Shown: positions 8,862-37,955 of the stretch, piece by piece
Position numbering within the stretch: position 1 is the first letter of the stretch
Layout: each line of letters starts with the position of its first letter
DNA from: Candidatus Levybacteria bacterium RIFCSPHIGHO2_01_FULL_37_33
GTDB lineage: Bacteria > Patescibacteriota > Microgenomatia > Levybacterales > UBA12049
NCBI GenBank assembly: GCA_001782085.1
Contig: MFNM01000022.1
Span: 1-43,564, forward strand
Direction of reading: 5' to 3'
Length of the DNA: 43,564 nt
Notes under the pieces: model-generated
Databases searched by the model: none
Told to the model about the DNA's origin: nothing
What the model saw: only the letters and a program-made list of their open reading frames with translations
Translations under genes and position numbers: made by a program

Positions 8862-8863
8862 CA

Positions 8864-14236: not shown

Positions 14237-15711
14237 TAAATAAATTTAAAAACAAGAAAATTGCGGTGATTGGGCTTGGAATAGAAGGTTTATCAAGTGT
14301 AAAATTTTTTAAAAAACAAGAAGCAAAAGTTATTGCTCTTGATCAAAAACCCTCCTTCGCTAAAGCTTCGAAGGGCAGGCAGGAAAAGATAATGCTCGGT
14401 AGAGATTATTTGAAGAATCTAGATCAGTACGATCTTGTTGTAAGAAGTCCGGGAGTTAAGCTAGGGCTTTTAGAAAAATATATATCAAGAAATAAGATAA
14501 CTTCGCAAACTAAGCTTTTTTTTGACCTTTGCCCGTGCCCGATTATTGGAGTAACCGGCACAAAAGGGAAGGGAACCACAGTATCTTTGATTTACGAAAT
14601 GCTGAAAAAGCAATCCTCCTCCGCTAAAGCTTCGGGGGACAAGGGCTTAGATGTATATTTAGGAGGAAATATCGGTAAGCCTCCTTTGGATTTTTTGGAC
14701 AAATTAAATCCTCAGTCCATTGTTGTTCTGGAATTGTCCAGTTTTCAGCTGCAGGATCTTACCAAAAGCCCTCATATTGCTGTCGTTCTTATGATAACAA
14801 GCGAGCACCTCGATTATCACAAAGATACACATGAATATGTTAATTCAAAAAGAAATATTCTTCGTTTTCAAACCAAAGAGGATCTTGTAATTATAAATAA
14901 AGATTATCCGGCAAGCAATGAATCACATATTCATACAGAAGGAAAAGTTTATGAGATAAGCCGAATTGGAAAAGTTAAAGAAGGGTGTTTTGTAAAAGAT
15001 GGAAAAATTATTGTCAGGGTTTCTCGGGGTCCTGTCAAAGGTTTCCTTCCCGTCGATGCTCGTTCTAGCCTCTCAAGTTCGGACGAACTCCGCGTCGCCG
15101 GAAACCCTTCCACCTTTGCCACCCCTCGATTTGGAACTGCGGAAATAATCAAAACTAAGGATATTCTTTTGCCAGGAAAACATAATCTAGAAAATGTTTG
15201 CGCGGCTGTTATGGCGGCGCTTCTTTCTGGTGTTTCAAAAGAAAACATTGTAGAGGTTCTTAAAACTTTTAAGGGACTTGAGCATAGGCTTGAGCTTGTT
15301 TCGGAAATAAATGGGGTAAGATTTTATGATGATTCTTTTTCTACAATTCCAGAGACGACTACCGCGGCAATTGAGGCGTTTTCGGATCCCGAGATTTTAA
15401 TACTTGGAGGGTCGAGTAAAAATAGTGATTTCAAAAAATTGGGAGAAGTAATTTCAAATTCAAGAAATATAAAAGCGATAATAGGAATAGGAATGGAATG
15501 GAAAAGAATAAAATCCCAAATCCAAAATCACAAATCACAAAAGATTATCGAGGGATTAAAAAATATGAAAGAGATTGTCCAGAAAGCTGCATCAATATCA
15601 GAGCTGGGGGATGTGGTTTTGCTTTCTCCAGCCTGCGCAAGCTTTGACATGTTCAAAAACTATAAAGACCGCGGAAACCAGTTTAAAGAAGAAGTGGGAA
15701 AACTTATTTAA
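14233..15711 (+). CDS. murD: UDP-N-acetylmuramoyl-L-alanine--D-glutamate ligase, carrying four in-frame repeat insertions
   Basis: N-terminal Rossmann IAVIGLGIEG, P-loop GVTGTKGKGTT, Mur ligase C-terminal domain. About 45 aa longer than typical MurD because of the insertions listed below. Confidence 0.9.
   Translation: MINKFKNKKIAVIGLGIEGLSSVKFFKKQEAKVIALDQKPSFAKASKGRQEKIMLGRDYLKNLDQYDLVVRSPGVKLGLLEKYISRNKITSQTKLFFDLCPCPIIGVTGTKGKGTTVSLIYEMLKKQSSSAKASGDKGLDVYLGGNIGKPPLDFLDKLNPQSIVVLELSSFQLQDLTKSPHIAVVLMITSEHLDYHKDTHEYVNSKRNILRFQTKEDLVIINKDYPASNESHIHTEGKVYEISRIGKVKEGCFVKDGKIIVRVSRGPVKGFLPVDARSSLSSSDELRVAGNPSTFATPRFGTAEIIKTKDILLPGKHNLENVCAAVMAALLSGVSKENIVEVLKTFKGLEHRLELVSEINGVRFYDDSFSTIPETTTAAIEAFSDPEILILGGSSKNSDFKKLGEVISNSRNIKAIIGIGMEWKRIKSQIQNHKSQKIIEGLKNMKEIVQKAASISELGDVVLLSPACASFDMFKNYKDRGNQFKEEVGKLI
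14350..14383 (+). repeat. Small palindromic element (core CGCTAAAGCTTCG), in frame in murD
   Basis: CCCTCCTTCGCTAAAGCTTCGAAGGGCAGGCAGG with stem CCTTCG/CGAAGG; translated as PSFAKASKGRQ. Confidence 0.8.
14614..14645 (+). repeat. Second copy of the CGCTAAAGCTTCG palindromic element, in frame in murD
   Basis: TCCTCCTCCGCTAAAGCTTCGGGGGACAAGGG; translated as SSSAKASGDKG. Confidence 0.8.
15040..15140 (+). repeat. GC-rich insertion of about 100 nt, in frame in murD
   Basis: Outer stem GGTTTCC (15040)/GGAAACC (15100) and inner palindrome AGTTCGGACGAACT (15075-15088). Visibly more GC-rich than the rest of the gene. Translated as GFLPVDARSSLSSSDELRVAGNPSTFATPRFGTAE. Confidence 0.7.
15511..15543 (+). 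repeat. Heptamer array AAATCCC/AAATCCA/AAATCAC x2, in frame in murD
   Basis: 7-nt periodic A-rich array translated as KSQIQNHKSQK. Confidence 0.7.
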
Positions 15712-15733
15712 TAATATGTTATTATTTTAGTAA

Positions 15734-15934
15734 ATGGAATTTCTTTTCATGATCCATAAGCCTCATTTGAAAGTATTCTCTGCTGTTTGTTCAAACTTCG
15801 TGGTAGTTTGGATTATTGGAGCTTTTGCGACTAGAGAGCTTTTTGTGTTGACCAGTAATATTCTTGCTGCTATACTAATGTGGTACGCTGCCGCATGGGC
15901 AGAGAAAGAACTGGAGAGAAATTATGAATCTTAA
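15734..15934 (+). CDS. Small membrane protein
   Basis: 66 aa with two hydrophobic helices. Confidence 0.45.
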   Translation: MEFLFMIHKPHLKVFSAVCSNFVVVWIIGAFATRELFVLTSNILAAILMWYAAAWAEKELERNYES

Positions 15935-16046
15935 TCTCGACAGCATAATGGTTCAATCGCAAATCGCTATTGCGCTTATTATTATTGCTTTTGCAGTTTT
16001 GTATTTTGTGTCTTCCAGGAAGGGTCACCGCTCCAAACGCCCTTAA
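15924..16046 (+). CDS. Very small membrane protein (40 aa; not in the ORF track)
   Basis: MNLNLDSIMVQSQIAIALIIIAFAVLYFVSSRKGHRSKRP: one TM helix plus a basic tail. Overlaps the previous stop by 11 nt. Confidence 0.4.
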   Translation: MNLNLDSIMVQSQIAIALIIIAFAVLYFVSSRKGHRSKRP

Positions 16047-16053
16047 AATTTTC

Positions 16054-16082
16054 TTGAAATTTTAACTCATTAATGTTATAAT
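16054..16082 (+). promoter_or_regulatory. Near-consensus sigma-70 promoter
   Basis: TTGAAA (16054-16059), 17-nt spacer, TGtTATAAT with the -10 at 16077-16082. Confidence 0.65.
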
Positions 16083-16091
16083 GGTTAAATC

Positions 16092-16136
16092 ATGAACCAG
16101 CAAATGAAATCTTACTGGTACTATTTAACAAACTAA
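16092..16136 (+). CDS. Candidate 14-codon leader peptide MNQQMKSYWYYLTN
   Basis: ATG lies 9 nt after the -10 box. The aromatic run Y-W-Y-Y is followed by antiterminator/terminator alternatives. Confidence 0.35.
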   Translation: MNQQMKSYWYYLTN

Positions 16137-16178
16137 CTTCGGTTGGTGAGTTTGTAGTGCTCAGATTTCATAATAAGG

Positions 16179-16202
16179 CTCGCCAATCGGCGAGTTTTTT
16201 TT
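16179..16202 (+). terminator. Intrinsic terminator (attenuator candidate)
   Basis: CTCGCC-AATC-GGCGAG followed by 8 T, ending 10 nt before the racemase ATG. Confidence 0.7.
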
Positions 16203-16212
16203 GTGGAAAAAT

Positions 16213-16911
16213 ATGAAAAAATTAAATAAAAATTCAATCGGAATTATCGGTGGAATGGGACCACAGGCTTCGGCAAGAATGCTAGAGATTATGATTTCTA
16301 TGGCATCTTTAGAGTTTAATGCTATAAATGGTGATGATTTCCCCGAGATAATAGTAGATTCGATACCAATCCCAGATTTTATTTCTGATAAAAAGAACAT
16401 CAAGCCCGCTTTTAAAATGCTTAGCGATAGAGTTAAAAAACTAAATTTGCTTGGCATATCTCGTTTCGCCATTGCTTGTAACACCGCACATATATTCATA
16501 AATGATCTTAGTCAAGTCTCAGATTCTCCTTTTATCTCGATGATAGATAAAGTTGCAAAAGAAGTTTTAAAACGAAAAATTAAAAGAATTGGATTGCTAG
16601 CATCCCCCTCAACAATAAAATTTAATTTATATCAAAAAGCTTTGAAAGGAAAAGTTGAGACAATTTTACCTTCAGATAAAGAAATAGATTTATTAGAGAA
16701 TGTAATTAGGAATATAATATCCGGCAAAAACTCCTCTCTTGATACAAAAAGATTGTTAAGTATCGCTAAATCTCTAGAAAGAAGAGGAGCAGAGGGAATT
16801 ATTTTGGGTTGTACTGAGTTGCCATTGATTTTTCCTAAAGATTTCATTTTGCCTGTTTTCGATTCGCTCGAAATATTATCAAGATCATTATTGCGCAAGG
16901 TTTATGAATGA
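16213..16911 (+). CDS. Aspartate/glutamate-family racemase (aspartate racemase-like)
   Basis: IGIIGGMGPQAS, ACNTAH and GCTELP motifs. ATG at 16213 preferred over the track TTG at 16201, which lies inside the terminator T-tract. Confidence 0.85.
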   Translation: MKKLNKNSIGIIGGMGPQASARMLEIMISMASLEFNAINGDDFPEIIVDSIPIPDFISDKKNIKPAFKMLSDRVKKLNLLGISRFAIACNTAHIFINDLSQVSDSPFISMIDKVAKEVLKRKIKRIGLLASPSTIKFNLYQKALKGKVETILPSDKEIDLLENVIRNIISGKNSSLDTKRLLSIAKSLERRGAEGIILGCTELPLIFPKDFILPVFDSLEILSRSLLRKVYE

Positions 16912-17092
16912 AATACAATTAGCACATATGAAAAAAAGAGTACTTTCGGGTATTCGGACCAAGAAGGCGGAGCCGTTTTATTTTGACGATTGTTATGTTT
17001 GTCAAGCAACGAAAAAAGCGGAGAAGGAGGGAAAGGATTTAAGTGTGGAGGAGTTGACAGAGATTTTTCGAAAGGCAAATGAGCAGAACTAA
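16904..17092 (+). CDS. Small chimeric ORF whose residues 9-18 duplicate the TrpS N-terminus
   Basis: MKKRVLSGIR (from 16928) is identical to the first 10 aa of TrpS at 17290, with synonymous differences. The remainder (FYFDDCYVCQ...) is unrelated. Confidence 0.3.
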   Translation: MNEIQLAHMKKRVLSGIRTKKAEPFYFDDCYVCQATKKAEKEGKDLSVEELTEIFRKANEQN

Positions 17093-17219
17093 GAGAATTA
17101 AGACTTATGCGTTTGTAGATGCGTCGAACATCATTTATGGCGCGCGAGCGGAAGGATGGCGAATTGATTTTGGGAGCTTACGAGATTTGATAGAGTACAA
17201 AAAAAGAGGGAGACCCTAA
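17079..17219 (+). pseudogene. Truncated NYN/LabA-like nuclease gene (N-terminal 46 codons only)
   Basis: MSRTKRIKTYAFVDASNIIYGARAEGWRIDFGSLRDLI matches the start of NYN-domain proteins (vavFvDgsNlyy...gwkiDy.kL), then stops. Confidence 0.5.
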
Positions 17220-17289
17220 ATTAGAATCTTCCCTCAGTGTTATGAAATAATTATAACAGCGGCTTGTTATCTTGTCAACAGGGAAATAT

Positions 17290-18261: not shown

Positions 18262-18301
18262 AACTAGCTTCATTTTAGGATTGGCAAACAGCTTTTGGAT
18301 G

Positions 18302-18310
18302 TGGTATACT
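18302..18310 (+). promoter_or_regulatory. Extended -10 promoter element TGgTATACT upstream of ftsH
   Basis: Lies 7 nt upstream of ATG 18318, with no Shine-Dalgarno between. Confidence 0.5.
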
Positions 18311-18317
18311 CTTGCGG

Positions 18318-20186: not shown

Positions 20187-20222
20187 TTGACATTGCCTCT
20201 ATTTTCCTGAAATACTTGATAG

Positions 20223-20858: not shown

Positions 20859-20880
20859 TTTTGCTATAATCCTTATTCAT

Positions 20881-22578: not shown

Positions 22579-22590
22579 AAGAGATATATT

Positions 22591-23514
22591 ATGGAGAAAT
22601 TTGTACTGATAGATGGTAACGCAATAGTACACCGAGCTTATCATGTAATGCCTCCACTAACTCGCTCAGACGGTACCCCAACCGGCGCTGTTGCGGGATT
22701 TTTTTCTATGATTCTTAAAATAATTGCGGAACTTAAACCAGACCATATTGCAATTGCTTTTGACAGCCCAAGCCCAAACTTCAGAAAAGAATTTTTTGCG
22801 CAATATCAATCGCAGCGCCCTGCAATGGAAAGCGATCTTTCCCCGCAGTTTGGAATAATTCAAGGGATTTTGGAAAAGGCAAAAATATCTGCGTATGCTG
22901 TCGACGGACTTGAAGCAGACGATATTATAGGAACAATCGCAGAGAAAGCCAAGAAAACCGGACATCTGGTTTACATTCTAACCGGCGATCGGGATATGCT
23001 TCAGCTGGTAAATCACAAAACAAAAGTTTTAGCCCCAGTTAAAGGAATTTCGGAGATGGTGCTTTTCGATGAAAAGAAAGTTAAAGAAAAATACGGCATA
23101 TCTTCTTCTCAGTTCGTAGAACTTAAGGCTTTGATGGGGGATAATTCTGATAATTATTCTGGAGTTTCAGGGATCGGACCTAAGACCGCTTCAAATTTAA
23201 TCAATGCATTCGGATCCGTTGATAATATTTACAAAAATATCTCAAAAATAAAAACTAAAAACCCAAAACTTGCGCAAAAACTTGAAGCGGGTAAAAATAA
23301 CGCGAAACTCGCCCATCAGCTTGCAACAATCTTAACAGACGCCCCGTTTGAATATGATTTTTCCGACTGTGATATGAAAAACTTGGATATTCCGGAATTC
23401 AAAAAAGCTCTTGAAGCTTATGATTTTAAAACACTTCCGAAACGGCTTGATGACATTTTTCAAAAGAGCGGAAAAATAGAGAAAATTGTGAAGACACAGA
23501 TGAAACTTTTATGA
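22591..23514 (+). CDS. 5'-3' exonuclease (stand-alone Pol I N-terminal/FEN domain)
   Basis: LIDGNAIVHRAYH, GDRDMLQL and the H3TH motif GVSGIGPKTA. Confidence 0.9.
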   Translation: MEKFVLIDGNAIVHRAYHVMPPLTRSDGTPTGAVAGFFSMILKIIAELKPDHIAIAFDSPSPNFRKEFFAQYQSQRPAMESDLSPQFGIIQGILEKAKISAYAVDGLEADDIIGTIAEKAKKTGHLVYILTGDRDMLQLVNHKTKVLAPVKGISEMVLFDEKKVKEKYGISSSQFVELKALMGDNSDNYSGVSGIGPKTASNLINAFGSVDNIYKNISKIKTKNPKLAQKLEAGKNNAKLAHQLATILTDAPFEYDFSDCDMKNLDIPEFKKALEAYDFKTLPKRLDDIFQKSGKIEKIVKTQMKLL

Positions 23515-23515
23515 A

Positions 23516-23585
23516 ATTGTTCCATTGCTCTATTGCTGCATTGTTCTTTTTAAAACAATTTAACAATGAAACAATCTAACAATTT
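23516..23585 (+). repeat. Inverted array of 8-nt units (ATTGYTnn x4 / AACAATnn x4) spanning the glycosyltransferase start
   Basis: ATTGTT at 23516, ATTGCT at 23524 and 23532, ATTGTT at 23540, loop, then AACAAT at 23554, 23562, 23570 and 23578. ATG 23566 lies inside a unit. Confidence 0.8.
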
Positions 23586-24768
23586 GCGCATAGCCATTAT
23601 CCACGACTATATTAAAGAGTATGGAGGTGCTGAAAGAGTTTTGGAAGCGCTTCATGAGATTTGGCCAGATGCGCCGATTTATACTACAGTCTTTCTCCCA
23701 GATTTTTTAGGACCTCACAGAAATAGGTTCAAAAACTTCAAAATTAAGACTTCTTTTCTTCAATACCTGCCATTTAAGGAAAAACTTATCAGCCCTTTTA
23801 GAATTATTGCACCTTTGGTTTTTAAAACTTTTGATTTCTCAGAATTCGATGTGGTTATGGTTTCTGCAACAGGAGCATACAGTCCGAATTCGATTCGGAC
23901 AACAATTAACAATCGACAGTCAACAATTAACAAAAAAATAGTTCAAATTTGCTATTGTCATACTCCGCCCCGATATCTTTATGGGTATGCGACTGCTCGG
24001 GAATGGAAGAATAATTTAGTTTTTCGAGTTTTGGGGGAGCTTGCAAATCATTTCTTAAGGTTAGTTGATTTTAAAAGTTCACAAAATGTTGATTTTTTTA
24101 TTGCAAATTCAAAGAATGTTGCGGGAAGGATAAAAAAATTCTATAGAAAAGACTCAATAGTTATTTATCCACCGGTTGATACGCGGAATAAGGAATCAGG
24201 AATAAGGAATCAAAAAGTAAAAAAATCACATAATTCGTCATTCATAATTCATAATTCATATTTTTTAGCTGGCGGTAGGATAGCGAGGCCGAAAAATATT
24301 GAGTTGATAATTAAGACATTTGCTAAGCTAAAATTACCTCTTAAAGTTTTTGGAAAAGAATTCGGCGGACTTAGATTAAAAGAATCAGGAATTAGGAATC
24401 ACGAATCACGCATTGAATATCTGGGAGAAGTAAGCGATGAAGAAAAGTTAGAACTTATGAGAAATGCTAAGGCTTTTATTTTTGCCTCCGAAGATGAGGA
24501 TTTTGGGATTACTCCGGTTGAGGCAATGAGTGTTGGCACGCCGGTTATCGCATATCGGTCTGGGGGAGTTTTAGAGTCGGTTATTGAAGGGAAAACGGGT
24601 TTGTTTTTTGATGAATTGACAACCGAAAGCTTGTCAAAAGCAATCAAACAATTTAACAATTTAACAATTAATGCAAGCGATTGCATCGCCCAAGCCCAAA
24701 AGTTTTCAAAAGAAAGATTTAAAAAGGAAATAAAAGAGTTTGTAGAAAATAAATATAATAAAGATTAA
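23566..24768 (+). CDS. GT4-family glycosyltransferase with in-frame repeat insertions
   Basis: The EDFGITPVEAMSVGTPVIAYRSGGVLESV region and two Rossmann halves. Insertions at 23884-23927, 24185-24262, 24381-24411 and 24647-24668. Confidence 0.85.
   Translation: MKQSNNLRIAIIHDYIKEYGGAERVLEALHEIWPDAPIYTTVFLPDFLGPHRNRFKNFKIKTSFLQYLPFKEKLISPFRIIAPLVFKTFDFSEFDVVMVSATGAYSPNSIRTTINNRQSTINKKIVQICYCHTPPRYLYGYATAREWKNNLVFRVLGELANHFLRLVDFKSSQNVDFFIANSKNVAGRIKKFYRKDSIVIYPPVDTRNKESGIRNQKVKKSHNSSFIIHNSYFLAGGRIARPKNIELIIKTFAKLKLPLKVFGKEFGGLRLKESGIRNHESRIEYLGEVSDEEKLELMRNAKAFIFASEDEDFGITPVEAMSVGTPVIAYRSGGVLESVIEGKTGLFFDELTTESLSKAIKQFNNLTINASDCIAQAQKFSKERFKKEIKEFVENKYNKD
24185..24262 (+). repeat. Inverted heptamer array (GGAATMA x4 ... 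nnnATTC x4), in frame in the glycosyltransferase
   Basis: GGAATAAGGAATCAGGAATAAGGAATCA, a 16-nt A-rich loop, then CATAATTCGTCATTCATAATTCATAATTCATA. GAAT/ATTC cores are complementary. Translated as NKESGIRNQKVKKSHNSSFIIHNS. Confidence 0.75.
24381..24411 (+). repeat. Heptamer array AGAATCA GGAATTA GGAATCA CGAATCA, in frame in the glycosyltransferase
   Basis: Same word family as 24185 and 32699; translated as KESGIRNHESR. Confidence 0.75.
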
Positions 24769-24770
24769 AT

Positions 24771-25752: not shown

Positions 25753-25778
25753 GAACCGCTATGTGTTAAAATTTCCCC

Positions 25779-28217: not shown

Positions 28218-28270
28218 TTTTCATAGTACTGACTGTTACTATCATATTTTAGTACTGATACCAACTTTTT

Positions 28271-28981
28271 ATGACAAATAATAATTATTCTGAGAAAATT
28301 GCTATCTCGCTAGGGGGTTCGCTTATTGTCCCAAATGGAGGCATAGATACAGCCTTTCTTAAGAGGTTTAATGATTTCATAAGAGACAAACTGGCGGAAA
28401 AAGAAAACCGCCAGTTTTTTATTGTAGTAGGGGGTGGATCAACTACTAGGCATTACCAAAAAGCAGTAAGAGAAGTTGTAGGAGACAAGCTTGCTTCTGA
28501 AGATTTAGATTGGCTTGGTATTCATGCGACAAGACTTAATGCCCATCTTATCCGTACCATTTTTCGGGACATCGCCCATTCTTATATTCTTAAGCATTAT
28601 GAAATCATAAGGAAAGTGGATGAGCCAGTTGTTATTGGTTCTGGTTGGAAGCCGGGGTGGTCTACGGATTATTGCGTCGCAATGGCTTGCGAGGATTATA
28701 ATATCAAAACGATTATAAATTTAAGCAATATTGCTCAAGTTTATGATAAAGATCCAAAAAAGTTTCAAGATGCAAAACCAATTAATAAAATTTCCTGGGA
28801 AGATTTTCGAAAACTGGTGGGGGATAAGTGGATTCCCGGAATGCATGCACCATTTGATCCGGTTGCTTCTAAAAACGCTCAAGAACTTGGAGTAAAGGTT
28901 GTAGTTCTCAAGGGTGATGATTTCGAAAATCTCGAAAATTACTTCAACGGCAAAAAATTTGTTGGAACTGTGATAGAATAA
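28271..28981 (+). CDS. pyrH: UMP kinase, archaeal type
   Basis: ISLGGSLIV, VVGGGSTTRHY and DWLGIHATRLNAHLI are typical of archaeal-type uridylate kinases (amino acid kinase fold). Confidence 0.8.
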   Translation: MTNNNYSEKIAISLGGSLIVPNGGIDTAFLKRFNDFIRDKLAEKENRQFFIVVGGGSTTRHYQKAVREVVGDKLASEDLDWLGIHATRLNAHLIRTIFRDIAHSYILKHYEIIRKVDEPVVIGSGWKPGWSTDYCVAMACEDYNIKTIINLSNIAQVYDKDPKKFQDAKPINKISWEDFRKLVGDKWIPGMHAPFDPVASKNAQELGVKVVVLKGDDFENLENYFNGKKFVGTVIE

Positions 28982-29048
28982 ATTGCTTTATTGTTTGATT
29001 GTTGTATTGTTTTTTGATTTAACAATTTAGCAATGGTACAATTTAGCC
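28982..29048 (+). repeat. Inverted array of 8-nt units (ATTGYTnn x4 / ARCAATnn) containing the recF promoter
   Basis: ATTGCT 28982, ATTGTT 28990, 28998 and 29006, loop, AACAAT 29021, AGCAAT 29029, TACAAT 29037. TGgTACAAT sits 6 nt before ATG 29049. Confidence 0.8.
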
Positions 29049-30110
29049 ATGTTTCTCCGATCACTCAGTCTTCAAAATTTTAGAAACTACGAAAAGGCGG
29101 ATTTTAATTTTGCAAAAGATACAGCCATAATTGTTGGTCCGAATACTTCGGGTAAAACAAATTTTGCAGAAAGCATCTTTTATCTTGCAACGGGAAGAGG
29201 TTCTAAAGCCGAAAAAGACGCAGACTTGATACGTTTTTCGCAAAACTTAGCGAGGCTTTCGGGAGTACTTGAGGATAAAACAGAGCTTTCTGTTGTTGTC
29301 TGCCGGGAAGAATCAGATACGCGGGAAACAATTCGCAAGAAATATTTGGTAAACGGTGTTTTCAAAAGAAGAGTGGATTTTGCGGGAAATTTTGCTTGTG
29401 TAATTTTTTCTCCGGAGGATTTGGATATTATAATCGGCGGGCCGAACTTAAGAAGAAGATTATTGGACAATCTCTTAGAGCAGGTTGATAGGGACTATAG
29501 AAATGCGACAATTGTTTATACAAAAGCTCTTCGGCAAAGGAACGCGCTTTTAGACCGGGTAAGAGAATCAGGAGTAAGAAATGAAAAACTTTTCGAGTAT
29601 TGGGACGATCTTTTAATAAATAATGCGGCCGTTATTACAAAAAAAAGAGAAGAGTTTGTGCAGTTTATAAATGATTTTTCAAAAGAGATTTTTGATTTTA
29701 TTGTTTTTTACGACAAGAGTATTGTATCAAGTGCTCGGCTTTTGCAATATAGGCAGGCAGAAGTCGGAGCAGGGGTAACACTGGTTGGTCCACATCGAGA
29801 TGATGTGTCTTTTAGTATGTTTAATAACACGAGGCAAACAACACATGACATAAAATCTTTTGGATCAAGAGGACAACAGCGGTTAACTATTCTTCAGATG
29901 AAAATTATCGAGCTTTCTTTTATAGAAAAAATAATAGGGCAAAAACCTATCCTTATTTTGGATGATATATTCTCAGAGCTTGACTCAGGACACATAAAAT
30001 TGGTTTTGGATATGCTTTCGAATCAGCAATCAATTGTTACGACAACGCATAAAGAATTTATCGATTCAAAAATTCTTAAAAATGCCGACGTGATAGAATT
30101 GAGTAAATGA
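29049..30110 (+). CDS. recF: DNA replication and repair protein RecF
   Basis: Walker A GPNTSGKTN, SMC-like signature, Walker B LILDDIFSELD. Confidence 0.9.
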   Translation: MFLRSLSLQNFRNYEKADFNFAKDTAIIVGPNTSGKTNFAESIFYLATGRGSKAEKDADLIRFSQNLARLSGVLEDKTELSVVVCREESDTRETIRKKYLVNGVFKRRVDFAGNFACVIFSPEDLDIIIGGPNLRRRLLDNLLEQVDRDYRNATIVYTKALRQRNALLDRVRESGVRNEKLFEYWDDLLINNAAVITKKREEFVQFINDFSKEIFDFIVFYDKSIVSSARLLQYRQAEVGAGVTLVGPHRDDVSFSMFNNTRQTTHDIKSFGSRGQQRLTILQMKIIELSFIEKIIGQKPILILDDIFSELDSGHIKLVLDMLSNQQSIVTTTHKEFIDSKILKNADVIELSK

Positions 30111-30961
30111 AAACTTTCGATCCTGAAATACTTAAAAAACTGTATAAACCGCCGCCAGACTCTCATAAAGGACAGAATGGGAAGCTGCTTTTAATCGGAG
30201 GATCTAAGATTTTTCATGCGGCTTCGCTCTGGTCCCTAAAGGTTGCGTCAAGAATAGTTGATATGGTTTTTTATTCATCCATTCCCGAAAACAACCAGAT
30301 AGTTCAAAAGACAAAACAGGAATTTAGAGACGGAATAGTAGTTTCGCGAAACAAGGTCGAAGATTACATAAATGAAGCCGATTGCATTCTCATTGGTCCG
30401 GGATTGCCAAGAAAAGAGGGAGAGGAAGAGGGTGATGATGACACAAAATTCTTAACAGAAAAACTCCTTAAAAAGTACCCTAATAAAAAGTGGGTTATCG
30501 ATGGAGGCTCTCTTCAAATGATGGATTTGGAGATTATCCCGGGCAATTCAATCTTGACGCCCCACAAAAGAGAGTTCGAGATGCTGAAATTAAAAATTAA
30601 AAATGAAAAATTAAAAATGACAATTCAAAATTTAAAATTGGAAGAACAAATTGCAGAGCTTGCTAAAGAGTTTAATTGTGTAGTTTTGCTCAAGGGAGAA
30701 AAAGATTATGTTTGTTCGCCTCGGGAGTGCACAGAGGTTCCTGGGGGGGATGCGGGGATGACAAAAGGAGGAACGGGAGATGTTTTAGCAGGTTTGGTTG
30801 CGGCTTTGTATTGTAAAAACGATGCATTTATTTCGGCCTGCTCTGCATCATTTATAAACAAAAAGGCAGGGGAAAGCTTATTCAAAAAAGTCGGTTACTA
30901 CTTTAACTCCTCAGACCTCGTTGACGAAATTCCTAAGGTTATGAAAGAATTAATCTTCTGA
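30107..30961 (+). CDS. nnrD: ADP-dependent NAD(P)H-hydrate dehydratase (YjeF C-terminal type) with in-frame A-rich insertion
   Basis: HKGQNGKLLLIGGS and GTGDVLAGLVAAL motifs. Insertion at 30587-30642 is translated as KLKIKNEKLKMTIQNLKLE. Confidence 0.8.
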   Translation: MKTFDPEILKKLYKPPPDSHKGQNGKLLLIGGSKIFHAASLWSLKVASRIVDMVFYSSIPENNQIVQKTKQEFRDGIVVSRNKVEDYINEADCILIGPGLPRKEGEEEGDDDTKFLTEKLLKKYPNKKWVIDGGSLQMMDLEIIPGNSILTPHKREFEMLKLKIKNEKLKMTIQNLKLEEQIAELAKEFNCVVLLKGEKDYVCSPRECTEVPGGDAGMTKGGTGDVLAGLVAALYCKNDAFISACSASFINKKAGESLFKKVGYYFNSSDLVDEIPKVMKELIF

Positions 30962-31231: not shown

Positions 31232-31297
31232 TAGCTTATTATAACACTTATTTTGAATATTTAAATTCTTCGGGAAATATGCGATAATTGGATACGA

Positions 31298-32362
31298 ATG
31301 TATATACCAAAGTTCACTATTACAAACAAGATTCTTAAAAACATCGGAATAATTGAGGCATGCCGGGAAGTTATAGACAAAGCACCTCTTCTTCCTTACT
31401 ACGAAAAACAGTTCCGGGATGATGCGCTTATCAGAACTGTTCACTACGGAACTCATATTGAGGGAAATGAGTTAAATCTTTCCCAGGCAGAAAATGTAAT
31501 TATGGGAAAAGATGTTGTAGCCCGACAACGCGATATTCAGGAAGTTATAAACTACAGAAAGGTTATGCGGTATATTGAAGACATGGAAGAGTCAGAAAGA
31601 GTCAAAGAGTCAAAGAAAATTATAGACGAGGGTCTTATAAAACATCTCCATAGTCTTACAGTTAAAAAAATTTTATCAGCGGATGCTATCGGAAATTATC
31701 GAAAAAAACAGGTTGTTGTTAAAAATAGTTATACCGGAAAGGTTTCTTTTAAACCTCCTCTTTCTGTTGCGATCCCACCCCAGATAAAAGACCTAATTGC
31801 ATTTATAAACAGCACATCGGAGCAAGATATTCATCCGGTTTTGAAGAGCGGAGTTGTTCATTATGAACTCGTAAGAATCCACCCGTTTTTAGACGGAAAT
31901 GGACGAGTTGCAAGAGCACTTTCTACCCTTATTCTGTTTTTGGAAGGATATGATATAAGAAAATTCTTTTCTCTTGAGGAATATTTTGATAAAGAAGCAG
32001 TTAGGTATTATGACGCTTTGCAAAGTGTTGGAAAAAATGACGGCGATTTAACAAAATGGCTTGAATATTTTACGCAAGGTCTAGCAATTGAGCTTTCAAA
32101 AATAAAAGACAGGGTTGAGAAAATTTCAATCGACGCAAACCTTCGGGAAAAACTCGGAGGGAAACCAATAATGCTGACAGACAGACAGCTTAAGATAATG
32201 GAATATATTCAAAAGATAGGATATCTTCAGAACAAAGCATTTGGCGGGCTTTTTCCAATGGTTTCTGAGGACACGATTTTAAACGAGTTGAAAGCGCTGA
32301 TGAAGGCGGGTATAATCCGAAAGCAAGGAAAAACCAAAGCCGCAAAGTACATTATGAAGTAA
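31298..32362 (+). CDS. Fic-family protein (AMPylase-type) with C-terminal winged-helix domain
   Basis: Canonical Fic motif HPFLDGNGRVARAL. ATG lies 9 nt after TGcGATAAT. Confidence 0.85.
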   Translation: MYIPKFTITNKILKNIGIIEACREVIDKAPLLPYYEKQFRDDALIRTVHYGTHIEGNELNLSQAENVIMGKDVVARQRDIQEVINYRKVMRYIEDMEESERVKESKKIIDEGLIKHLHSLTVKKILSADAIGNYRKKQVVVKNSYTGKVSFKPPLSVAIPPQIKDLIAFINSTSEQDIHPVLKSGVVHYELVRIHPFLDGNGRVARALSTLILFLEGYDIRKFFSLEEYFDKEAVRYYDALQSVGKNDGDLTKWLEYFTQGLAIELSKIKDRVEKISIDANLREKLGGKPIMLTDRQLKIMEYIQKIGYLQNKAFGGLFPMVSEDTILNELKALMKAGIIRKQGKTKAAKYIMK

Positions 32363-32403
32363 AAAAGAGTCATAGAGCCAAAGAGATAAAGACAATAAAG
32401 ATT

Positions 32404-34209
32404 ATGCACTTTAGTACTTTAAGTAAATATTACGAAAAATTAGAAGCAACTAGTAAACGCTTGGAATTGATAGATATTCTCTCAAAACTTTTTAAACAGG
32501 CAAAGAGCGATGAAATAGGTAAAATTTGTTATTTGATTCAGGGAAGAGTCGCGCCTTTTTTTGAACCAATAGAGATGGGGATGGCGGAAAATATTGTAGC
32601 GGTTGCGATAGCTCGGGCGTTCAATAAGGAAAAAGAACACGTAATTAAATTGTATCGAAAACTTGGGAATATGGGAATTGCAGCAGAAGAGCTATCGCGG
32701 AATCACGAATCGCGAATCAGGAATCAGGAATTAACAATAAGCCAGGTATTTAATGAACTTTTGAAAATTGCAAAATTCTCAGGTGAAGGGACTGTTGAAA
32801 AAAAAGTATCTGCGCTTTCAGGACTTCTTAAAAAATTAGATCCGATTTCTGCAAAGCATGTAGTAAACATTCCGCTTGGGACTTTAAGACTTGGTATTGG
32901 TGATGCTACAGTTTTGGATTCTCTATCCCTTTCAAAACATGGAGATAAAACACTTCGCCCTGTTCTTGAAGATGCATATAATAAAACAAGCGATCTGGGT
33001 TTTGTTGCAGAAACTTTTTTTAAGAAAGGAATCAACGGCATTAAAAATATAAAACTTACCTTAGGAAAGCCGATTCGACCCGCTCTTGCCGAGAGACTTC
33101 CTTCGGCAGATGAGGCAATAAAAAGGTTAGGAAATGAATTTGCGGCAGAGCCAAAGTTCGATGGATTTAGAGTTCAGATTCACTTAAGTAGAGCACACCT
33201 CCGAGGTGTGCCGCAGGCGCAACACCACCTCGGAGGTGGAGGAGAAGAGGTTGTTCAGCTTTTTTCAAGAAATCTAGAAAATACAACTCATGCCTTTCCC
33301 GACATCGTTTCAGGAGCGAAAAAAGAAATTAAGGCAAAATCTGCAATCTTAGAAGGGGAAGCAATTGCGTATAATCCTCAAACGCAGGAATTTTTGCCGT
33401 TTCAGGAAACTACAAAAAGAAGAAGAAAATATAAAATTGAGGAGATGGCAAAAAAACTTCCCTTAGTCTTATTTGCCTTTGACCTTTTGTATTTAAATGG
33501 GAAGGATATAACACAGAAACCTTATAGGCAAAGGAGAAAACTTTTGGAATCAATAGTTTCAAGAAATGGCGGAGTTATTAAAATTGCGCAGGAAAAGATT
33601 TTAAAAAGTACTAAAGAAATAACAGAATTTTTCAACGAAGCAATTTCTGAAGGACTTGAGGGACTCATGCTTAAAAAGCTGGATAGTCCCTATATCGCAG
33701 GGGGTAGGGGTTTTCATTGGATTAAATTTAAGAGAACTCAGGCAGGACAATTGACAGATTCGGTTGACTGCGTTTTACTTGGGGTCTATTCAGGAAAGGG
33801 GAAGAGAACAGAGTTTGGAGTAGGAGGGCTTTTGGTTGGCGTTTATGATGAGAAAAAAGACGAATTCGTTTCAATATCAAGGATCGGTACGGGCTTAACA
33901 GATGAGGAATTTAGAAAAGTAAATGAAATTTCAAAGCAATTAAGAGTTGTGCATAAGCCGGCTCGGGTCAATTCTGATATTACGCCGTCCTATTGGGTTG
34001 AGCCAAAGGTAGTTTTGGAAATTCAGGCAGACGAGATAACCCGCTCTCCAATCCACACGGCAGGTCGTGATAGAGAAGGCTTAGGATATGCTCTTCGTTT
34101 CCCAAGACTTGTAAAGTTTCGGGAAGCGGATAAAAGAGCCGAGGATGCGACAACAGTTGAAGAAATAAAAAAACTCTACAAACAACAATTCAACCACTAT
34201 AAGAAATAA
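32404..34209 (+). CDS. lig: ATP-dependent DNA ligase (Lig1/archaeal type) with two in-frame repeat insertions
   Basis: Motif I EPKFDGFR, then LEGEAIAY, FAFDLLYLNG, EGLMLK and WIKFK. Insertions at 32699-32732 and 33193-33239. Confidence 0.9.
   Translation: MHFSTLSKYYEKLEATSKRLELIDILSKLFKQAKSDEIGKICYLIQGRVAPFFEPIEMGMAENIVAVAIARAFNKEKEHVIKLYRKLGNMGIAAEELSRNHESRIRNQELTISQVFNELLKIAKFSGEGTVEKKVSALSGLLKKLDPISAKHVVNIPLGTLRLGIGDATVLDSLSLSKHGDKTLRPVLEDAYNKTSDLGFVAETFFKKGINGIKNIKLTLGKPIRPALAERLPSADEAIKRLGNEFAAEPKFDGFRVQIHLSRAHLRGVPQAQHHLGGGGEEVVQLFSRNLENTTHAFPDIVSGAKKEIKAKSAILEGEAIAYNPQTQEFLPFQETTKRRRKYKIEEMAKKLPLVLFAFDLLYLNGKDITQKPYRQRRKLLESIVSRNGGVIKIAQEKILKSTKEITEFFNEAISEGLEGLMLKKLDSPYIAGGRGFHWIKFKRTQAGQLTDSVDCVLLGVYSGKGKRTEFGVGGLLVGVYDEKKDEFVSISRIGTGLTDEEFRKVNEISKQLRVVHKPARVNSDITPSYWVEPKVVLEIQADEITRSPIHTAGRDREGLGYALRFPRLVKFREADKRAEDATTVEEIKKLYKQQFNHYKK
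32699..32732 (+). repeat. Heptamer array GGAATCA CGAATCG CGAATCA GGAATCA GGAATT, in frame in the ligase
   Basis: Same word family as the glycosyltransferase arrays; translated as RNHESRIRNQE. Confidence 0.75.
33193..33239 (+). repeat. Twin GC-rich hairpins in frame just after ligase motif I
   Basis: GCACACCTC-C-GAGGTGTGC (33193-33211) and CCACCTC-G-GAGGTGG (33225-33239); translated as AHLRGVPQAQHHLGGG. Confidence 0.8.
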
Positions 34210-34238
34210 TTGACAAGTCTTCTTCTAAGTGTTATCTT
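34210..34238 (+). promoter_or_regulatory. Sigma-70-type promoter
   Basis: TTGACA (34210-34215), 17-nt spacer, TATCTT (34233-34238). ATG 34252 lies 13 nt downstream. Confidence 0.5.
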
Positions 34239-34251
34239 TGCAAAATTGATT

Positions 34252-35178: not shown

Positions 35179-35236
35179 AGTTTTAAAAGAAGCAGTGGAA
35201 GTGACAAGAGAAGTCTGGGCGAAATAGAAAACTGAG

Positions 35237-35245
35237 TGTTATAAT
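35237..35245 (+). promoter_or_regulatory. Extended -10 element TGtTATAAT
   Basis: Lies 6 nt upstream of GTG start 35252, with no SD. Confidence 0.5.
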
Positions 35246-35251
35246 GTCTTT

Positions 35252-36676
35252 GTGAGTTTTGTAGCAGATCTACATTTACATAGTAAGTATTCGCGTGCGG
35301 TTTCGCAGAATATGATTTTGCCTGAGATGGCAAGGTGGGCAAGCTTAAAAGGACTTGATGTTATTTCCACATCGGATTTTACTCATCCTCTTTGGTTTAG
35401 AGAATTAAAGAGTCAACTTGAGGAAGCATCCGATGGTCTTTACAGACTTAAATCAGACAACAGTCAGACTCTATTTCTTCTATCAACAGAAATTTCAAGC
35501 ATTTATAAACAGGGAGAGAAACTTAGAAGAATTCATAATCTGGTTTTTGTGCCAAATCTTGAAACAGTTGAAAAGATAAACAAAGAATTTACAAAAAGAG
35601 CATTCAATCTCCTAGCAGACGGCAGACCTATTATCGGACTCTCATCAAAAGATCTTTTAGAGCTTCTTCTTTCTATCGATAAAAATATTTTGCTTATTCC
35701 CTGTCATGTTTGGACGCCTCATTTTGGCTTATATGGAAGTGCTTCGGGATTTGATTCTATAGAAGAATGCTTTGGTAACTTAAGAGATTATGTATATGCA
35801 GTAGAAACCGGTTTATCAAGCGATCCGGAGATGAACTGGCAAATTGAAGAGTTAAGGACTCGTTCAATCCTCTCATTTTCCGATGCCCATTCGGGAGCAA
35901 AGATGGGAAGAGAGGCGACCGTATTTGAGCTTCAAGAACCAAGCTATGAGAACATAAGAAAATCAATAACTCGGTTATCGGTTTTCAGTGGTCAGTTATC
36001 GGGTACCAGTTCATCGGTTGCTCGGTCTACAGATAAACTGAAAACAGAACAACAAAAAACCGAAAACAGAAAACCGAAAACTGATAACAGAATTCAATAC
36101 ACCATTGAATTTTATCCTGAGGAGGGGAAGTATCATTTTTCCGGTCATCGAAATTGCAAAGTAGTTCGGGGTCCAGAGGAAACTAGGAAAGACGGAAATA
36201 TTTGCCCGGTATGCAAAAGGCGGCTTACAGAAGGAGTTCTTTACAGACTTCAGCAGTTATCCAATAAAAATTTATTAGGAAAAGTAGAGGCTAAAATAAG
36301 TCAGTCGGGGATAAAATGGTACACCGATACAATGAAGAATCATCCGCCGTTTATAAAACTTGTTCCTTTAAACGAAATAATCTCAGAAGCTTTTTCTTCG
36401 ACTGTTTCCAGCCAAAAAGTTAAAGATACCTTTGATAACTTATGCAAGAATTTAGGATCGGAAATAGAAGTTCTTCTTAAAACCCCGCTTTCCCAAATAG
36501 AAAAAATAGGAGGGGCTAAATTATCGCAAGGGCTTGATAAAGTTAGAAAGGGCAATATTGTCATAGACCCAGGATATGATGGAGAATACGGGAAAGTAAA
36601 AATATGGAACGGCAACGACACAATTACTCAATCAGTAGAAGAAAAACAAGAGTCTCAATTGGGTCTTCAATTTTAA
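35252..36676 (+). CDS. Endonuclease Q-like PHP-domain nuclease (TIGR00375-type) with a 120-nt in-frame hairpin insertion
   Basis: ADLHLHSKYSRAVS PHP motif, zinc finger CPVCKRRLTEGVLYR, C-terminal DPGYDGEYGKV. Confidence 0.75.
   Translation: MSFVADLHLHSKYSRAVSQNMILPEMARWASLKGLDVISTSDFTHPLWFRELKSQLEEASDGLYRLKSDNSQTLFLLSTEISSIYKQGEKLRRIHNLVFVPNLETVEKINKEFTKRAFNLLADGRPIIGLSSKDLLELLLSIDKNILLIPCHVWTPHFGLYGSASGFDSIEECFGNLRDYVYAVETGLSSDPEMNWQIEELRTRSILSFSDAHSGAKMGREATVFELQEPSYENIRKSITRLSVFSGQLSGTSSSVARSTDKLKTEQQKTENRKPKTDNRIQYTIEFYPEEGKYHFSGHRNCKVVRGPEETRKDGNICPVCKRRLTEGVLYRLQQLSNKNLLGKVEAKISQSGIKWYTDTMKNHPPFIKLVPLNEIISEAFSSTVSSQKVKDTFDNLCKNLGSEIEVLLKTPLSQIEKIGGAKLSQGLDKVRKGNIVIDPGYDGEYGKVKIWNGNDTITQSVEEKQESQLGLQF
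35969..36090 (+). repeat. Long imperfect hairpin built from 7-nt units, in frame in the EndoQ-like gene
   Basis: T/G-rich arm CGGTTAT CGGTTTT CAGTGGT CAGTTAT... and A/C-rich arm ...AAACCGA AAACAGA AAACCGA AAACTGA TAACAG. The terminal 15-mers are complementary at 13/15 positions. Translated as RLSVFSGQLSGTSSSVARSTDKLKTEQQKTENRKPKTDNR. Confidence 0.8.
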
Positions 36677-37314
36677 TGTTTAAAGATAGAAGACAAGCGG
36701 GAAAATTACTGGCCCGAAAACTTAAAAAATTTAAGAATGAAAAAGACGTTGTTGTAATAGGAATAACAAGAGGAGGAGTAGTAGTTGCTAAGGAAATCAG
36801 TAATTTTTTGAATCTTCCCCTTGATATTATAGTTATTAAAAAAATCGGAGCACCGCAAAATCCCGAACTTGCAATCGGCGCAATAGGTCCAAACGGTGTT
36901 GTTTTTTGGGATGAGGGTCTAATTAGAAGACTTAATATAGATGAAGAATACAAAAATCGCTCAAAAGAGATTAAGAATTTTGAGAGAGGTGAGCTTGAGA
37001 AATTTTTAAGAGGAGACAAAAAATCTTTAAATGTAAAAAATAAAAAAATTATTCTAGTAGATGACGGTGTGGCAACAGGCGCAACTGTTCTTTGCGCGGT
37101 AAAGTTTTTTAGAAAAGAGAAAAGTAAAGAGGTTGTTTTGGCGGTTCCGGTGATTGCAAAAGATACCCTTTTAAGTATTAAGAAATACTTTGATGCTGTT
37201 ATAGCTCTTCAAATAGAAGGAGAACTTTATGCCATAGGACAATTCTACAAAGAATTTCCTCAAGTAGATAACAAGGAAGTAATGGATCTAATTAATGAAA
37301 AATCAAGAGAATAA
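36676..37314 (+). CDS. Phosphoribosyltransferase-family protein
   Basis: PRPP-binding motif ILVDDGVATGAT. TAATG stop/start overlap with the upstream gene favours ATG 36676. Confidence 0.75.
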   Translation: MFKDRRQAGKLLARKLKKFKNEKDVVVIGITRGGVVVAKEISNFLNLPLDIIVIKKIGAPQNPELAIGAIGPNGVVFWDEGLIRRLNIDEEYKNRSKEIKNFERGELEKFLRGDKKSLNVKNKKIILVDDGVATGATVLCAVKFFRKEKSKEVVLAVPVIAKDTLLSIKKYFDAVIALQIEGELYAIGQFYKEFPQVDNKEVMDLINEKSRE

Positions 37315-37331
37315 ATTGTAAAATAAGGCGT

Positions 37332-37955
37332 ATGAAGTTAATCGTAGGGTTAGGCAACCCGGACATAAAATATGGGCATACACGCCATAATCTGGGTTTT
37401 ATGGTATTGGACAGATTTCTAAAAGACTTTTCGCAGGTTCAAAAAACTATTTGGGAAGATAGCAAAAAATTTAAATGTGATATTTCTCAGATTGAATGGC
37501 AGCCCAAACAAGGAGTACTTAGAAGAATAATTTTAGTAAAACCTAAAACATACATGAACAATTCAGGTCTAAGCGTTAAGCTTGTATCATCATTTTACAA
37601 AATTAATCCATCTGACATTTGGATAATTCATGATGAAATCGATTTGCCTTTAGGCAGTATGAAAATAAGATTTGGCGGAGGAACTGCGGGGCACAAGGGA
37701 GTGATGTCCATAATGAGCTCTTTGGGTACGGAAAAATTTTGGAGATTTAGGTTAGGCATCGGACACCAAAAAGGAATTCAAAATTTAAAATTCAAAATTA
37801 AAAATTCCAAAAGCGTCGAAGAATTTGTCTTGAGAGGATTCTCAAGCGGAGAGGCTGGAAAAGCGCGTGATGTTATAAAACGGGGATCAAAAGCTATTGC
37901 GGAGGCGCTTGAAAATGGTTTAGAAAAAGCAATGAACAGGTTCAATACCAAATAG
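37332..37955 (+). CDS. pth: Peptidyl-tRNA hydrolase with in-frame A-rich insertion
   Basis: LIVGLGNPDIKYGHTRHNLGF. The insertion at 37773-37811 (GIQNLKFKIKNSK) falls in the loop after RLGIGH. Confidence 0.9.
   Translation: MKLIVGLGNPDIKYGHTRHNLGFMVLDRFLKDFSQVQKTIWEDSKKFKCDISQIEWQPKQGVLRRIILVKPKTYMNNSGLSVKLVSSFYKINPSDIWIIHDEIDLPLGSMKIRFGGGTAGHKGVMSIMSSLGTEKFWRFRLGIGHQKGIQNLKFKIKNSKSVEEFVLRGFSSGEAGKARDVIKRGSKAIAEALENGLEKAMNRFNTK

Follow-up and report, generated by a model that had tools for sequence, protein, structure and literature searches.

Among the long simple sequence repeats (LSSRs) of many bacteria, those with heptanucleotide units are the most abundant class, and their proposed origin is slippage (Mrazek 2007, cited after PMC4679880 and PMC4692102). 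The STRR (short tandemly repeated repetitive sequences of cyanobacteria), TAACTGA and GGGNATC repeats occur in excess in non-coding DNA and are scarce or peripheral in open reading frames (ORFs) (PMC4679880, PMC4692102). Rickettsia palindromic elements (RPEs), which insert into genes in frame, are ~105-146 nt long, have a family consensus and form a stable palindrome (PMC3184786). The tandem repeats inside the ORFs of Borgs have unit lengths that are all divisible by three (PMC9879509). Here we analyze short repeats in a 43,564-nt stretch of Candidatus Levybacteria DNA (contig MFNM01000022.1), referred to as the window, which has a GC content of ~37% and carries almost every gene on the plus strand. 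The repeats lie within seven genes (murD, a GT4 glycosyltransferase gene, nnrD, a Fic gene, a ligase gene, an EndoQ-like gene and pth) and in the spacers between genes.

An earlier note on this DNA had listed 14 hairpins or periodic arrays in these genes and had proposed that they form a single class of inverted arrays without a name. All 14 lie where it placed them, or close by, in intact ORFs, in frame and without stop codons, and the peptides that it quoted are present in the translations. The single class did not hold. Most of the features are plain direct tandem repeats of heptanucleotides, which is a named category, the GC-rich items are dispersed mini-palindromes, and an 8-nt AACAAT hairpin is a third, conserved family. 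The repeats are thus of three short kinds and not one class of element. On balance, we think it probable that 7-nt arrays are generated and homogenized in situ, that two dispersed palindrome or hairpin families are present beside them, and that selection has filtered all of these into loops and spacers.

The comparison with RPEs, also drawn by the earlier note, is fair in the sense that the repeats work like RPEs: repetitive DNA is found in frame at permissive surface sites of conserved ORFs, adds peptide, and has intergenic copies too. Membership in the RPE family fails on length and on shared consensus. Most arrays of the window measure 27-60 nt, are non-palindromic and lack a shared consensus, and only the GC-rich mini-palindromes and the AACAAT hairpin, both far shorter than RPEs, act as dispersed families. 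Like the Borg repeats, the arrays are lineage-specific, fast-evolving and A-biased ORF repeats that lengthen proteins by disordered, hydrophilic stretches; for the Borgs, too, slippage and local seeds have been discussed (PMC9879509). Unlike the near-perfect Borg copies, the window copies are imperfect and have units of 7 or 8 nt. A 7-nt unit is therefore read in all three frames, with a periodicity of 7 amino acids. By analogy, the present case may be described as an RPE-like outcome combined with the repeat type of heptanucleotide simple sequence repeats. Our literature search returned no description of such arrays in the Candidate Phyla Radiation (CPR), Patescibacteria or Microgenomates.

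Heptanucleotide periodicity in the window and in related loci

Periodicity was measured as self-match of at least 85% over 21 nt at lags 4-16, with dinucleotide shuffles as the null. At lag 7 the window contained eight arrays, against a mean of 0.07 in the shuffles. Four arrays were found at lag 14, one at lag 8, and none at any of the remaining lags. A looser threshold yielded 12 period-7 arrays, all 12 of them within ORFs, and seven period-8 arrays, which were mainly intergenic or at gene starts. Tandem Repeats Finder (TRF) reported 3.4-8.9 copies for the period-7 arrays, with 66-92% match. According to TRF and the lag-7 scan, head-to-tail 7-nt units in at least three copies are present in nine of the 14 features, the EndoQ-like insert contributing two arms; the period-7 members are murD#4, GT4#1-3, nnrD, lig#1, both EndoQ arms and pth. 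The word families were enriched as well. Family ARCAATNNARCAAT had 13 matches where shuffles led us to expect 0.07, and family GAATNNNGAATNNNGAAT had nine where 0.04 were expected, so that both main families exceeded the shuffles more than 100-fold.

For comparison, 57 loci (numbered with the prefix L) were recovered from species-representative genomes via the GT4 protein, whose homologs carry the names Candidatus Levybacteria, Microgenomates or Patescibacteria. Orthologs of the other host genes were taken from these loci by synteny. In the 85% scan, Levybacteria-like loci contained one to seven period-7 arrays per ~20 kb. The same scan found no period-7 array in the non-CPR control loci, which came from Bacteroides, Prevotella, Sulfurimonas and others and included some, such as Bacteroides, of similar GC content. 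A wider census at 80% self-match found 105 period-7 arrays in 669 kb of CPR loci and three in 271 kb of controls. The 7-nt periodicity is a property of the lineage and extends to related Microgenomates loci.

Low-complexity, A-rich sequence is common at 37% GC, and one might suspect that chance or base composition has produced the arrays in an AT-rich genome, or that they stem from an assembly error. This explanation is refuted, and we give it next to no credence: the enrichment is confined to lags 7, 14 and 8, the Bacteroides controls of similar GC are free of arrays, and arrays recur at orthologous sites across many species. Moreover, a protein identical to the GT4 protein of the window is encoded on 24 separately assembled metagenome contigs, so the sequence is no assembly artefact.

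The arrays share with the heptanucleotide LSSRs (STRR, Beggiatoaceae TAACTGA, Xanthomonas/Nostoc GGGNATC) the head-to-tail 7-nt units in 3-8 copies beyond chance, a lineage-restricted signal, and slippage as the proposed origin. Unit AACTGAT of our set is a rotation of TAACTGA, and the CGACAGT/CAACAAT units resemble the STRR unit CAACAGT. Unlike the known LSSRs, 77 of the 105 CPR arrays (73%) are located mid-ORF in the coding sequence of conserved housekeeping genes. There are many units without a single consensus, homogenization occurs at constant length, some arrays form inverted pairs, and the copy-number variation between strains that is typical of variable-number tandem repeats was not seen in the strains and protein clusters compared.

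Per nucleotide, array density in the 80% census was 3.5 times higher in intergenic than in coding DNA. The sense strand was A-rich in 69 of the 77 coding arrays, whereas the intergenic arrays were A-rich in 11 cases and T-rich in 17. This bias fits selection acting as a filter. A-rich sense strands yield peptides rich in K, N, Q, S, E and I, and the reverse complement of the commonest, TCA-containing units would bring TGA. As a side observation, minus-strand ORFs account for 13% of the coding bases but contain none of the 77 coding arrays; this may reflect pseudo-replication from syntenic loci and not a real strand effect.

Array sites in conserved genes

The earlier note had regarded the arrays as lineage-specific insertions. 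This view was borne out for 12 of the 14 features, which occupy indel hot spots where orthologs have different inserts or none, but not for murD#4 and GT4#4, which are ancestral. Clear lineage-specific insertions are murD#2, murD#3, nnrD, lig#2 and the EndoQ-like insert; those in pth, lig#1 and Fic are smaller. The insertions have no signature of an intron, intein or RNA processing, and removal of the inserts by one of these routes was judged unlikely, also because they are in frame and stop-free.

The GT4 gene illustrates the hot spots best. In an alignment of 26 orthologs, the internal differences in length are almost entirely confined to three hot spots, which coincide with arrays 1-3, and to two further sites that are occupied in other species. 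Several orthologs have no insert at all. At the GT4#1 site, orthologs hold other heptamer arrays, GC palindromes or nothing. GT4#2 is the linker that joins the two Rossmann halves; its occupant differs in each ortholog, and the sequences are unrelated between species. An AlphaFold model built from the GT4 alignment (mean pLDDT 74) placed inserts 1-3 in low-confidence coil, with pLDDT 55-59 for GT4#1 and below 50 for residues 209-229 of the GT4#2 linker. The earlier prediction that the inserts of conserved genes fall into loops or linkers is supported, for GT4 inserts 1-3 by this model. GT4#4 is located in confident helices of the model. Its peptide is the family consensus, and GT4#4 is not an insertion.

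The DNA repeat of GT4#4 is kept in the loci of 10 other species. We also note that this DNA is near-invariant, as (AACAATTT)x3, at orthologous positions of L007, L008, L009, L011, L012, L014, L015, L031 and L055, in species with protein identities of only 46-76%. The conservation suggests a possible constraint at the nucleotide level or a tie to the AACAAT hairpin family.

Unit sequences at a given site change in concert. At the lig#1 site the window has (GAATCAC/G)4, and the L008 ortholog, which is 82% identical, has (AAATCAC)4 at equal position and length. The units differ uniformly, which indicates that one change has spread through every unit. Other units at this site are (AACTCAA)x4 in L007 and AACAACT in L013. 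L059 and L060 differ again, and the baseline sequence of L017 is non-repetitive. In murD#4 the length is unchanged in close orthologs, and this feature is therefore not an insertion. Its site is nevertheless occupied by perfect arrays of other units in other species, namely (AAAATCA)5 in L007, (AAATCCG)5 in L059 and (AATTTCC)4 in L028; L008 has an AATAACG array of the same length, and L017 and L022 are non-repetitive. Counted over all species, perfect arrays of five different units occupy the murD#4 site without any change in length.

The arrays also begin at local conserved codons. Those at the murD#4 site of the window, L007, L013, L059 and L020 begin at codons ATAAAATC, and those at the third GT4 site of the window, L008, L010, L012 and L018 start at GAAT, the baseline codons there being GAATT. 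This pattern of local seeds and concerted evolution favours in-situ slippage or gene conversion over transposition.

In the remaining genes, the inserts add variable lengths. The nnrD array adds 14-17 residues compared with L008, L013 and L017, and its RNA is significantly unstructured. All of its 53 nt are identical to L031:14863-14915, although the whole gene is 71% identical, and L007, a closer relative than L031, has a different nnrD array. Length and pattern of the nnrD segment are retained in six species, and the nnrD and pth arrays share an exact 18-mer. The Fic array lies in a loop of variable length that is longer in L009. The EndoQ-like insert exceeds five orthologs by ~27 residues, in a region ~50 residues longer than in P. 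furiosus EndoQ. The pth array adds 3-11 residues after the GIGH motif and is invariant across eight cluster members. Finally, lig#2 is an insertion of 18-20 residues compared with L008 and L013, and the insert that L060 has at this position is longer. The coordinates of all features are collected in Table 1.

Table 1. Repeat features of the window in order of position, followed by genes of the putative integrated element and the adjoining tRNA-Met; fold z-scores are relative to dinucleotide shuffles
Feature	Position	Strand	Description	Peptide	Fold z-score
murD#1	14354..14374	+	GC-rich mini-palindrome CCTTCGCTAAAGCTTCGAAGG	PSFAKASKG	
murD#2	14614..14643	+	30-nt GC-rich mini-palindrome insert	SSSAKASGDK	
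murD#3	15022..15132	+	GC-rich insert of ~35 aa, GC 0.59, non-periodic		-0.5
murD#4	15484..15541	+	GGAAT pentamers, then heptamer array AAAATCC/AAATCAC (TRF, lag scan)	KSQIQNHKSQ	
Upstream-of-GT4 element	23516..23583	+	Intergenic, abuts GT4 start; 8-nt period, (ATTGYTNN)x4 - loop - (AACAATNN)x4		-2.0 (23510-23590; periodic stem)
GT4#1	23900..23933	+	Heptamer array CAACAAT/TAACAAT/CGACAGT	TTINNRQSTINK	
GT4#2	24185..24260	+	Inverted heptamer arrays (GGAATNA)x4 ... (NNNATTC)x4	ESGIRNQKVKKSHNSSFIIHNS	-1.4
GT4#3	24382..24408	+	Heptamer array GAATCAG/GAATTAG/GAATCAC	ESGIRNHESRIE	
GT4#4	24639..24669	+	(ARCAATNN)x4 8-mer array	KQFNNLTIN	
recF-junction element	28982..29051	+	Intergenic, AA-kinase-like gene/recF; 8-nt ATTGTT/ARCAAT hairpin		-3.6 (28975-29055)
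nnrD array	30587..30639	+	Heptamers AAATTAA/AAATGAA/AATTCAA	KLKIKNEKLKMTIQNLKL	+2.1
Fic array	31587..31616	+	AAAGAGTC 8/9-mer units	ESERVKESKK	-2.2
Intergenic sister of Fic array	32364..32394	+	AAAGAGNC 8-mer array between Fic and ligase genes		
lig#1	32694..32731	+	Heptamers GAATCAC/GAATCGC/GAATCAG	NHESRIRNQ	
lig#2	33190..33249	+	GC-rich palindrome, GC 0.63, downstream of motif I	RAHLRGVPQAQHHLGGGGEE	-3.3
EndoQ-like insert	35971..36092	+	Inverted heptamers (TCGGTTN)n ... (AACCGAN/AACAGAN)n, periodic hairpin		-4.0 (-35.4 kcal/mol)
pth array	37775..37811	+	AATTCAA/AATTTAA heptamers flanked by GGAATT..AATTCC	IQNLKFKIKNS	-1.9
Intergenic inverted array	38242..38336	+	Inverted heptamer array (ungapped inverted-repeat scan)		
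Tyrosine integrase	806-1711	minus	In putative integrated element		
Small terminase subunit	6559-7125		In putative integrated element		
Large serine recombinase	9192-10955		In putative integrated element, adjoins tRNA-Met		
tRNA-Met	11229-11301		Beside serine recombinase		

Palindromes, hairpins and dispersed families

The earlier note had described many of the features as hairpins. In RNA folding against dinucleotide shuffles, five of the 14 (EndoQ, lig#2, Fic, pth and GT4#2) folded better than the shuffles. For the other nine, with z-scores near 0 or positive as in shuffled sequence, the term was dropped. The good folders form helices of 2-6 bp with regular internal loops between them, a periodic architecture that arises because both arms consist of 7- or 8-nt units. 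Inverted arms are present in five elements. An ungapped inverted-repeat scan at 18 of 22 matches found nothing in the window, and at 18 of 24 it found five structures against ~1.9 in shuffles, a modest enrichment; four of these five are periodic arrays. Sister copies in intergenic DNA, as claimed in the earlier note, exist at four places (Table 1), one of which, the inverted heptamer array furthest downstream, had been absent from its list.

Two of the intergenic elements belong to a separate family of inverted arrays with 8-nt ATTGTT/AACAAT units, whose sequence is kept across loci and species. One abuts the start of the GT4 gene, and L008 has its 3' arm at the orthologous place. The other lies at the recF junction, where the ATG of recF is within the last CAATG unit of the hairpin. 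The hairpin is found at this junction in the window, L014, L021 and L059 and is absent from L013, L018, L023 and L036, in which the spacer measures only 8-20 nt. Other species have unrelated arrays or GC palindromes there. In L012 and L015 the hairpin occurs in frame within a MutM-like ORF, and its direct form corresponds to the conserved codons of GT4#4. The Neisseria REP2 and Borrelia stem-loop repeats (PMC3184786) are similar in that they are small dispersed repeats directly upstream of ORFs that give or overlap the ATG. They differ in having no sequence relation to the AACAAT hairpin, whose arms consist of 8-nt periodic units.

The placement at start codons raises the possibility that the arrays are functional and selected, either as binding sites or hairpins in RNA or DNA (for translation, processing or termination) or as flexible linkers or heptad-like segments of proteins. 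The 3' arm of the AACAAT hairpin holds the recF start codon in four species, the same element is found upstream of GT4, and both intergenic hairpins fold well. The retention of the nnrD segment in six species, with DNA fully identical to L031, and of the GT4#4 repeat in 10 other species' loci points in the same direction. There are also precedents, namely Neisseria REP2 repeats that contain a ribosome binding site together with an ATG (PMC3184786) and the Beggiatoaceae TAACTGA heptamers upstream of start codons (PMC4679880). Nevertheless, we consider a general function improbable. The inserts are wholly missing at the same sites or junctions in many close relatives, the site occupants are unrelated in sequence across species, the inserts are modelled as disordered coil, Rfam gave no family match, and no candidate binding protein emerged.

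The GC-rich mini-palindromes make up the other dispersed family. The GC content of murD#1 is 0.58, compared with ~0.37 for the genome. L013, the nearest ortholog, lacks this feature, but a native segment of 21 residues is found at its position in other orthologs. murD#2 is a clean insertion of 10 residues that none of the 14 aligned orthologs has. The two share the 12-mer GCTAAAGCTTCG and also CGCTAAAGCTTCG, and the distant locus L034 has a copy in its EndoQ C-terminus that matches murD#2 with 91% identity over 33 nt. A degenerate 21-mer GC pattern was found in at least 120 metagenome contigs. Among 80 contigs with the 21-mer that were read, GC contents ranged from 0.29 to 0.68, and 44 of the 80 copies lay in stop-free frames of at least 450 nt. 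Both orientations are represented, and the copies are read in several frames (SFAKATEGK, PPSLKLRRT, LRSFSEGG, SVALAKEG). The family has a shared core of 21 nt, yet a total length of only ~30 nt. Unrelated GC palindromes occupy the same GT4 and nnrD hot spots in other species.

The shared 21-nt GC-rich core is CCTYCGCTAAAGCTWCGRRGG; in the contigs read (loci L064-L143) it often lies within long ORFs. This distribution points to a very widespread family of mini-palindromes well beyond the CPR.

The murD#3 insert is missing from most orthologs, and L008 and L020 have different inserts at its site. When each insert was compared with all loci by BLAST, those of EndoQ, lig#2 and murD#3 proved to have no sister copies. 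We note in addition that a strain contig otherwise 99.9-100% identical to the window has 82 divergent nt (L002:889-970) in place of window positions 14983-15141, that is, of 159 nt around murD#3. The 82 nt resemble the insert-free allele of the L013 type, and the gene caller splits MurD at this site. Possible explanations for the difference are a frameshift, a chimeric assembly or an allele that arose by recombination.

The spread of related sequences over several genes would also be expected if all arrays derived from a single non-autonomous mobile element, or from a small number of them (similar to MITEs, RPEs or REPINs), with direct arrays as decayed halves. Arrays of the same unit do occur in unrelated genes: GAATCAS is found twice in the GT4 gene and once in the ligase gene, and the 18-nt match links nnrD and pth. 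The AACAAT hairpin is present at several loci and patchy across species at the recF junction, the nnrD array is identical in a distant species, the GC mini-palindrome is spread over many contigs and genes, and a GC palindrome is nested within a heptamer array of L018. Even so, a mobile origin of the arrays in general seems unlikely to us. Heptamer units vary widely by site and species, and the arrays, 27-128 nt in length, have no shared consensus or conserved termini. They start at local conserved codons, their position and length stay fixed as the units change together, and most of them lack hairpin potential. Pfam scans of 20 flanking ORFs found no transposase of the insertion sequence (IS) or RAYT type near the arrays, the recombinase genes of the window (tyrosine integrase and serine recombinase) are confined to a putative integrated element at 1-11 kb, and inspection of the arrays revealed no convincing target-site duplication.

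The nested palindrome of L018 (L018:1828-1917), which has the sequence (CATCCGTCAGCCGACGGATC), is GC-rich and lies inside an (AAAATCA)n heptamer array at the first GT4 site.

Bases 1-11,000 of the window (to ~11300) look like an integrated mobile element or prophage remnant, judging from their gene content. No period-7 arrays were found inside this putative element. A full-length group I catalytic intron is located at 10941-11149 on the minus strand (Rfam, 62.9 bits, gathering threshold 50). The serine recombinase ORF and the intron overlap at the 3' end of the ORF; the intron lies just upstream of the tRNA-Met gene and has no evident host gene. The Rfam scan detected no family over any array, its matches in the window being one tRNA and this intron. 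Elsewhere in the window, a phosphoribosyltransferase ORF (36604-37314), if read from its first ATG, would share 73 nt (36604-36676) with the 3' end of the EndoQ-like gene; its true start is probably further downstream.

Origin and turnover of the arrays

Phase-variable genes classically contain tandem repeats within the ORF whose unit length is not divisible by three, and perfect arrays of 4-5 units exist in several related species. If the arrays were contingency loci, gain or loss of 7 nt would switch genes on and off. This explanation is largely refuted and has, in our judgment, very little chance of being correct. The hosts include essential housekeeping genes (murD, pth, ligase) and not the surface or virulence genes that are typical of phase variation, the arrays sit mid-ORF, and the arrays of the window are imperfect (74-100% match). 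Among strains and contigs 99.8-100% identical to the window, none had an indel in the arrays compared, and the 90%-identity clusters of the seven proteins contained no copy-number or length variants. Turnover of the arrays is visible between species only. Near-identical strains without copy-number change argue against phase variation.

A mosaic allele was found for the ligase. The variant protein P0133 is nearly identical to the window ligase (32404-34209) from residue ~125 to residue ~375, lig#2 included. Its first ~125 residues are divergent, with a different lig#1 array that is 6 residues longer and similar to that of L060, and its C-terminal third has scattered substitutions. Together with the match between nnrD and L031, P0133 is most simply read as the product of short-patch homologous recombination. 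For nnrD, constraint on the segment would be an alternative reason for the identity.

Taken together, we favour the following scenario for the three kinds of repeat. Heptanucleotide arrays of 3-8 units, A-rich in the sense strand and sometimes in inverted pairs, would be born in situ from a local seed. Turnover of units within an array, by replication slippage, unequal exchange or gene conversion, would keep the heptamers repetitive; a change would spread to all units, and selection would fix overall length and frame. The ~70-nt hairpin of 8-nt units with ATTGTT/AACAAT core is a conserved dispersed family that abuts start codons. The GC-rich mini-palindromes of ~30-110 nt include, at least for the murD#1/#2 type, a very widespread dispersed family. 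Homologous recombination among related Levybacteria may carry array-bearing patches across lineages. All of these repeats would persist only where extra DNA is tolerated, in very short spacers and in surface loops or linkers of conserved proteins, and, surviving only at such permissive sites, would therefore be read through in frame in proteins. Of the coding copies, only those that are hydrophilic (A-rich sense), stop-free, frame-preserving and located in loops would last. The data themselves show the periodicity, the hot spots, the concerted unit changes, the local seeds, the signatures of a filter, the mosaic allele and the broad dispersal of the GC element. Slippage, gene conversion or template switching would be the molecular mechanism, and we infer that the insert peptides are mostly tolerated passengers.

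Several points weigh against this scenario. Because of the synteny among the census loci, their array counts cannot be treated as independent. The strain-level data contain no copy-number variation, and no slippage event was directly seen. Insert sizes relative to the baseline orthologs do not follow the 21-nt steps predicted for slippage by three units. The inverted arrays would need template switching or units with a palindromic core in addition to slippage. The nnrD array is better conserved than its flanks, which could mean constraint or function and not passenger DNA. Since their sequences are conserved across loci and species, the GC mini-palindrome and the AACAAT hairpin behave like mobile or functional elements.

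We also consider, as a tentative and rather doubtful possibility, a more far-reaching process. Levybacteria and related Microgenomates might possess an active process, tied to a 7-nt register but hardly to any sequence, that seeds, inverts and continually homogenizes arrays, rewriting the loops of essential proteins at constant length. Its source might be the replisome and repair set of these organisms or a dedicated enzyme. The periodic hairpins of the EndoQ insert, GT4#2 and the AACAAT family would then represent a distinct kind of element that has not been described.

What sets the arrays of the window apart is that units not divisible by three are tolerated mid-ORF and evolve in concert at fixed length. 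If the phenomenon is general, a 1-Mb CPR genome would have ~100 arrays within conserved proteins, given the 12.7 arrays found per 100 kb of coding sequence in the loci studied here. Annotation, alignment, phylogeny and structure prediction of CPR proteins would be confounded by them. The arrays would also be a tractable system in which to ask why slippage in bacteria favours a register of 7 nt, a question that dates from 2007 and has been little pursued since (PMC4692102). For the organisms themselves, again if the phenomenon is general, they would represent a path at the DNA level to new disordered loops in the essential enzymes of ultra-small genomes.

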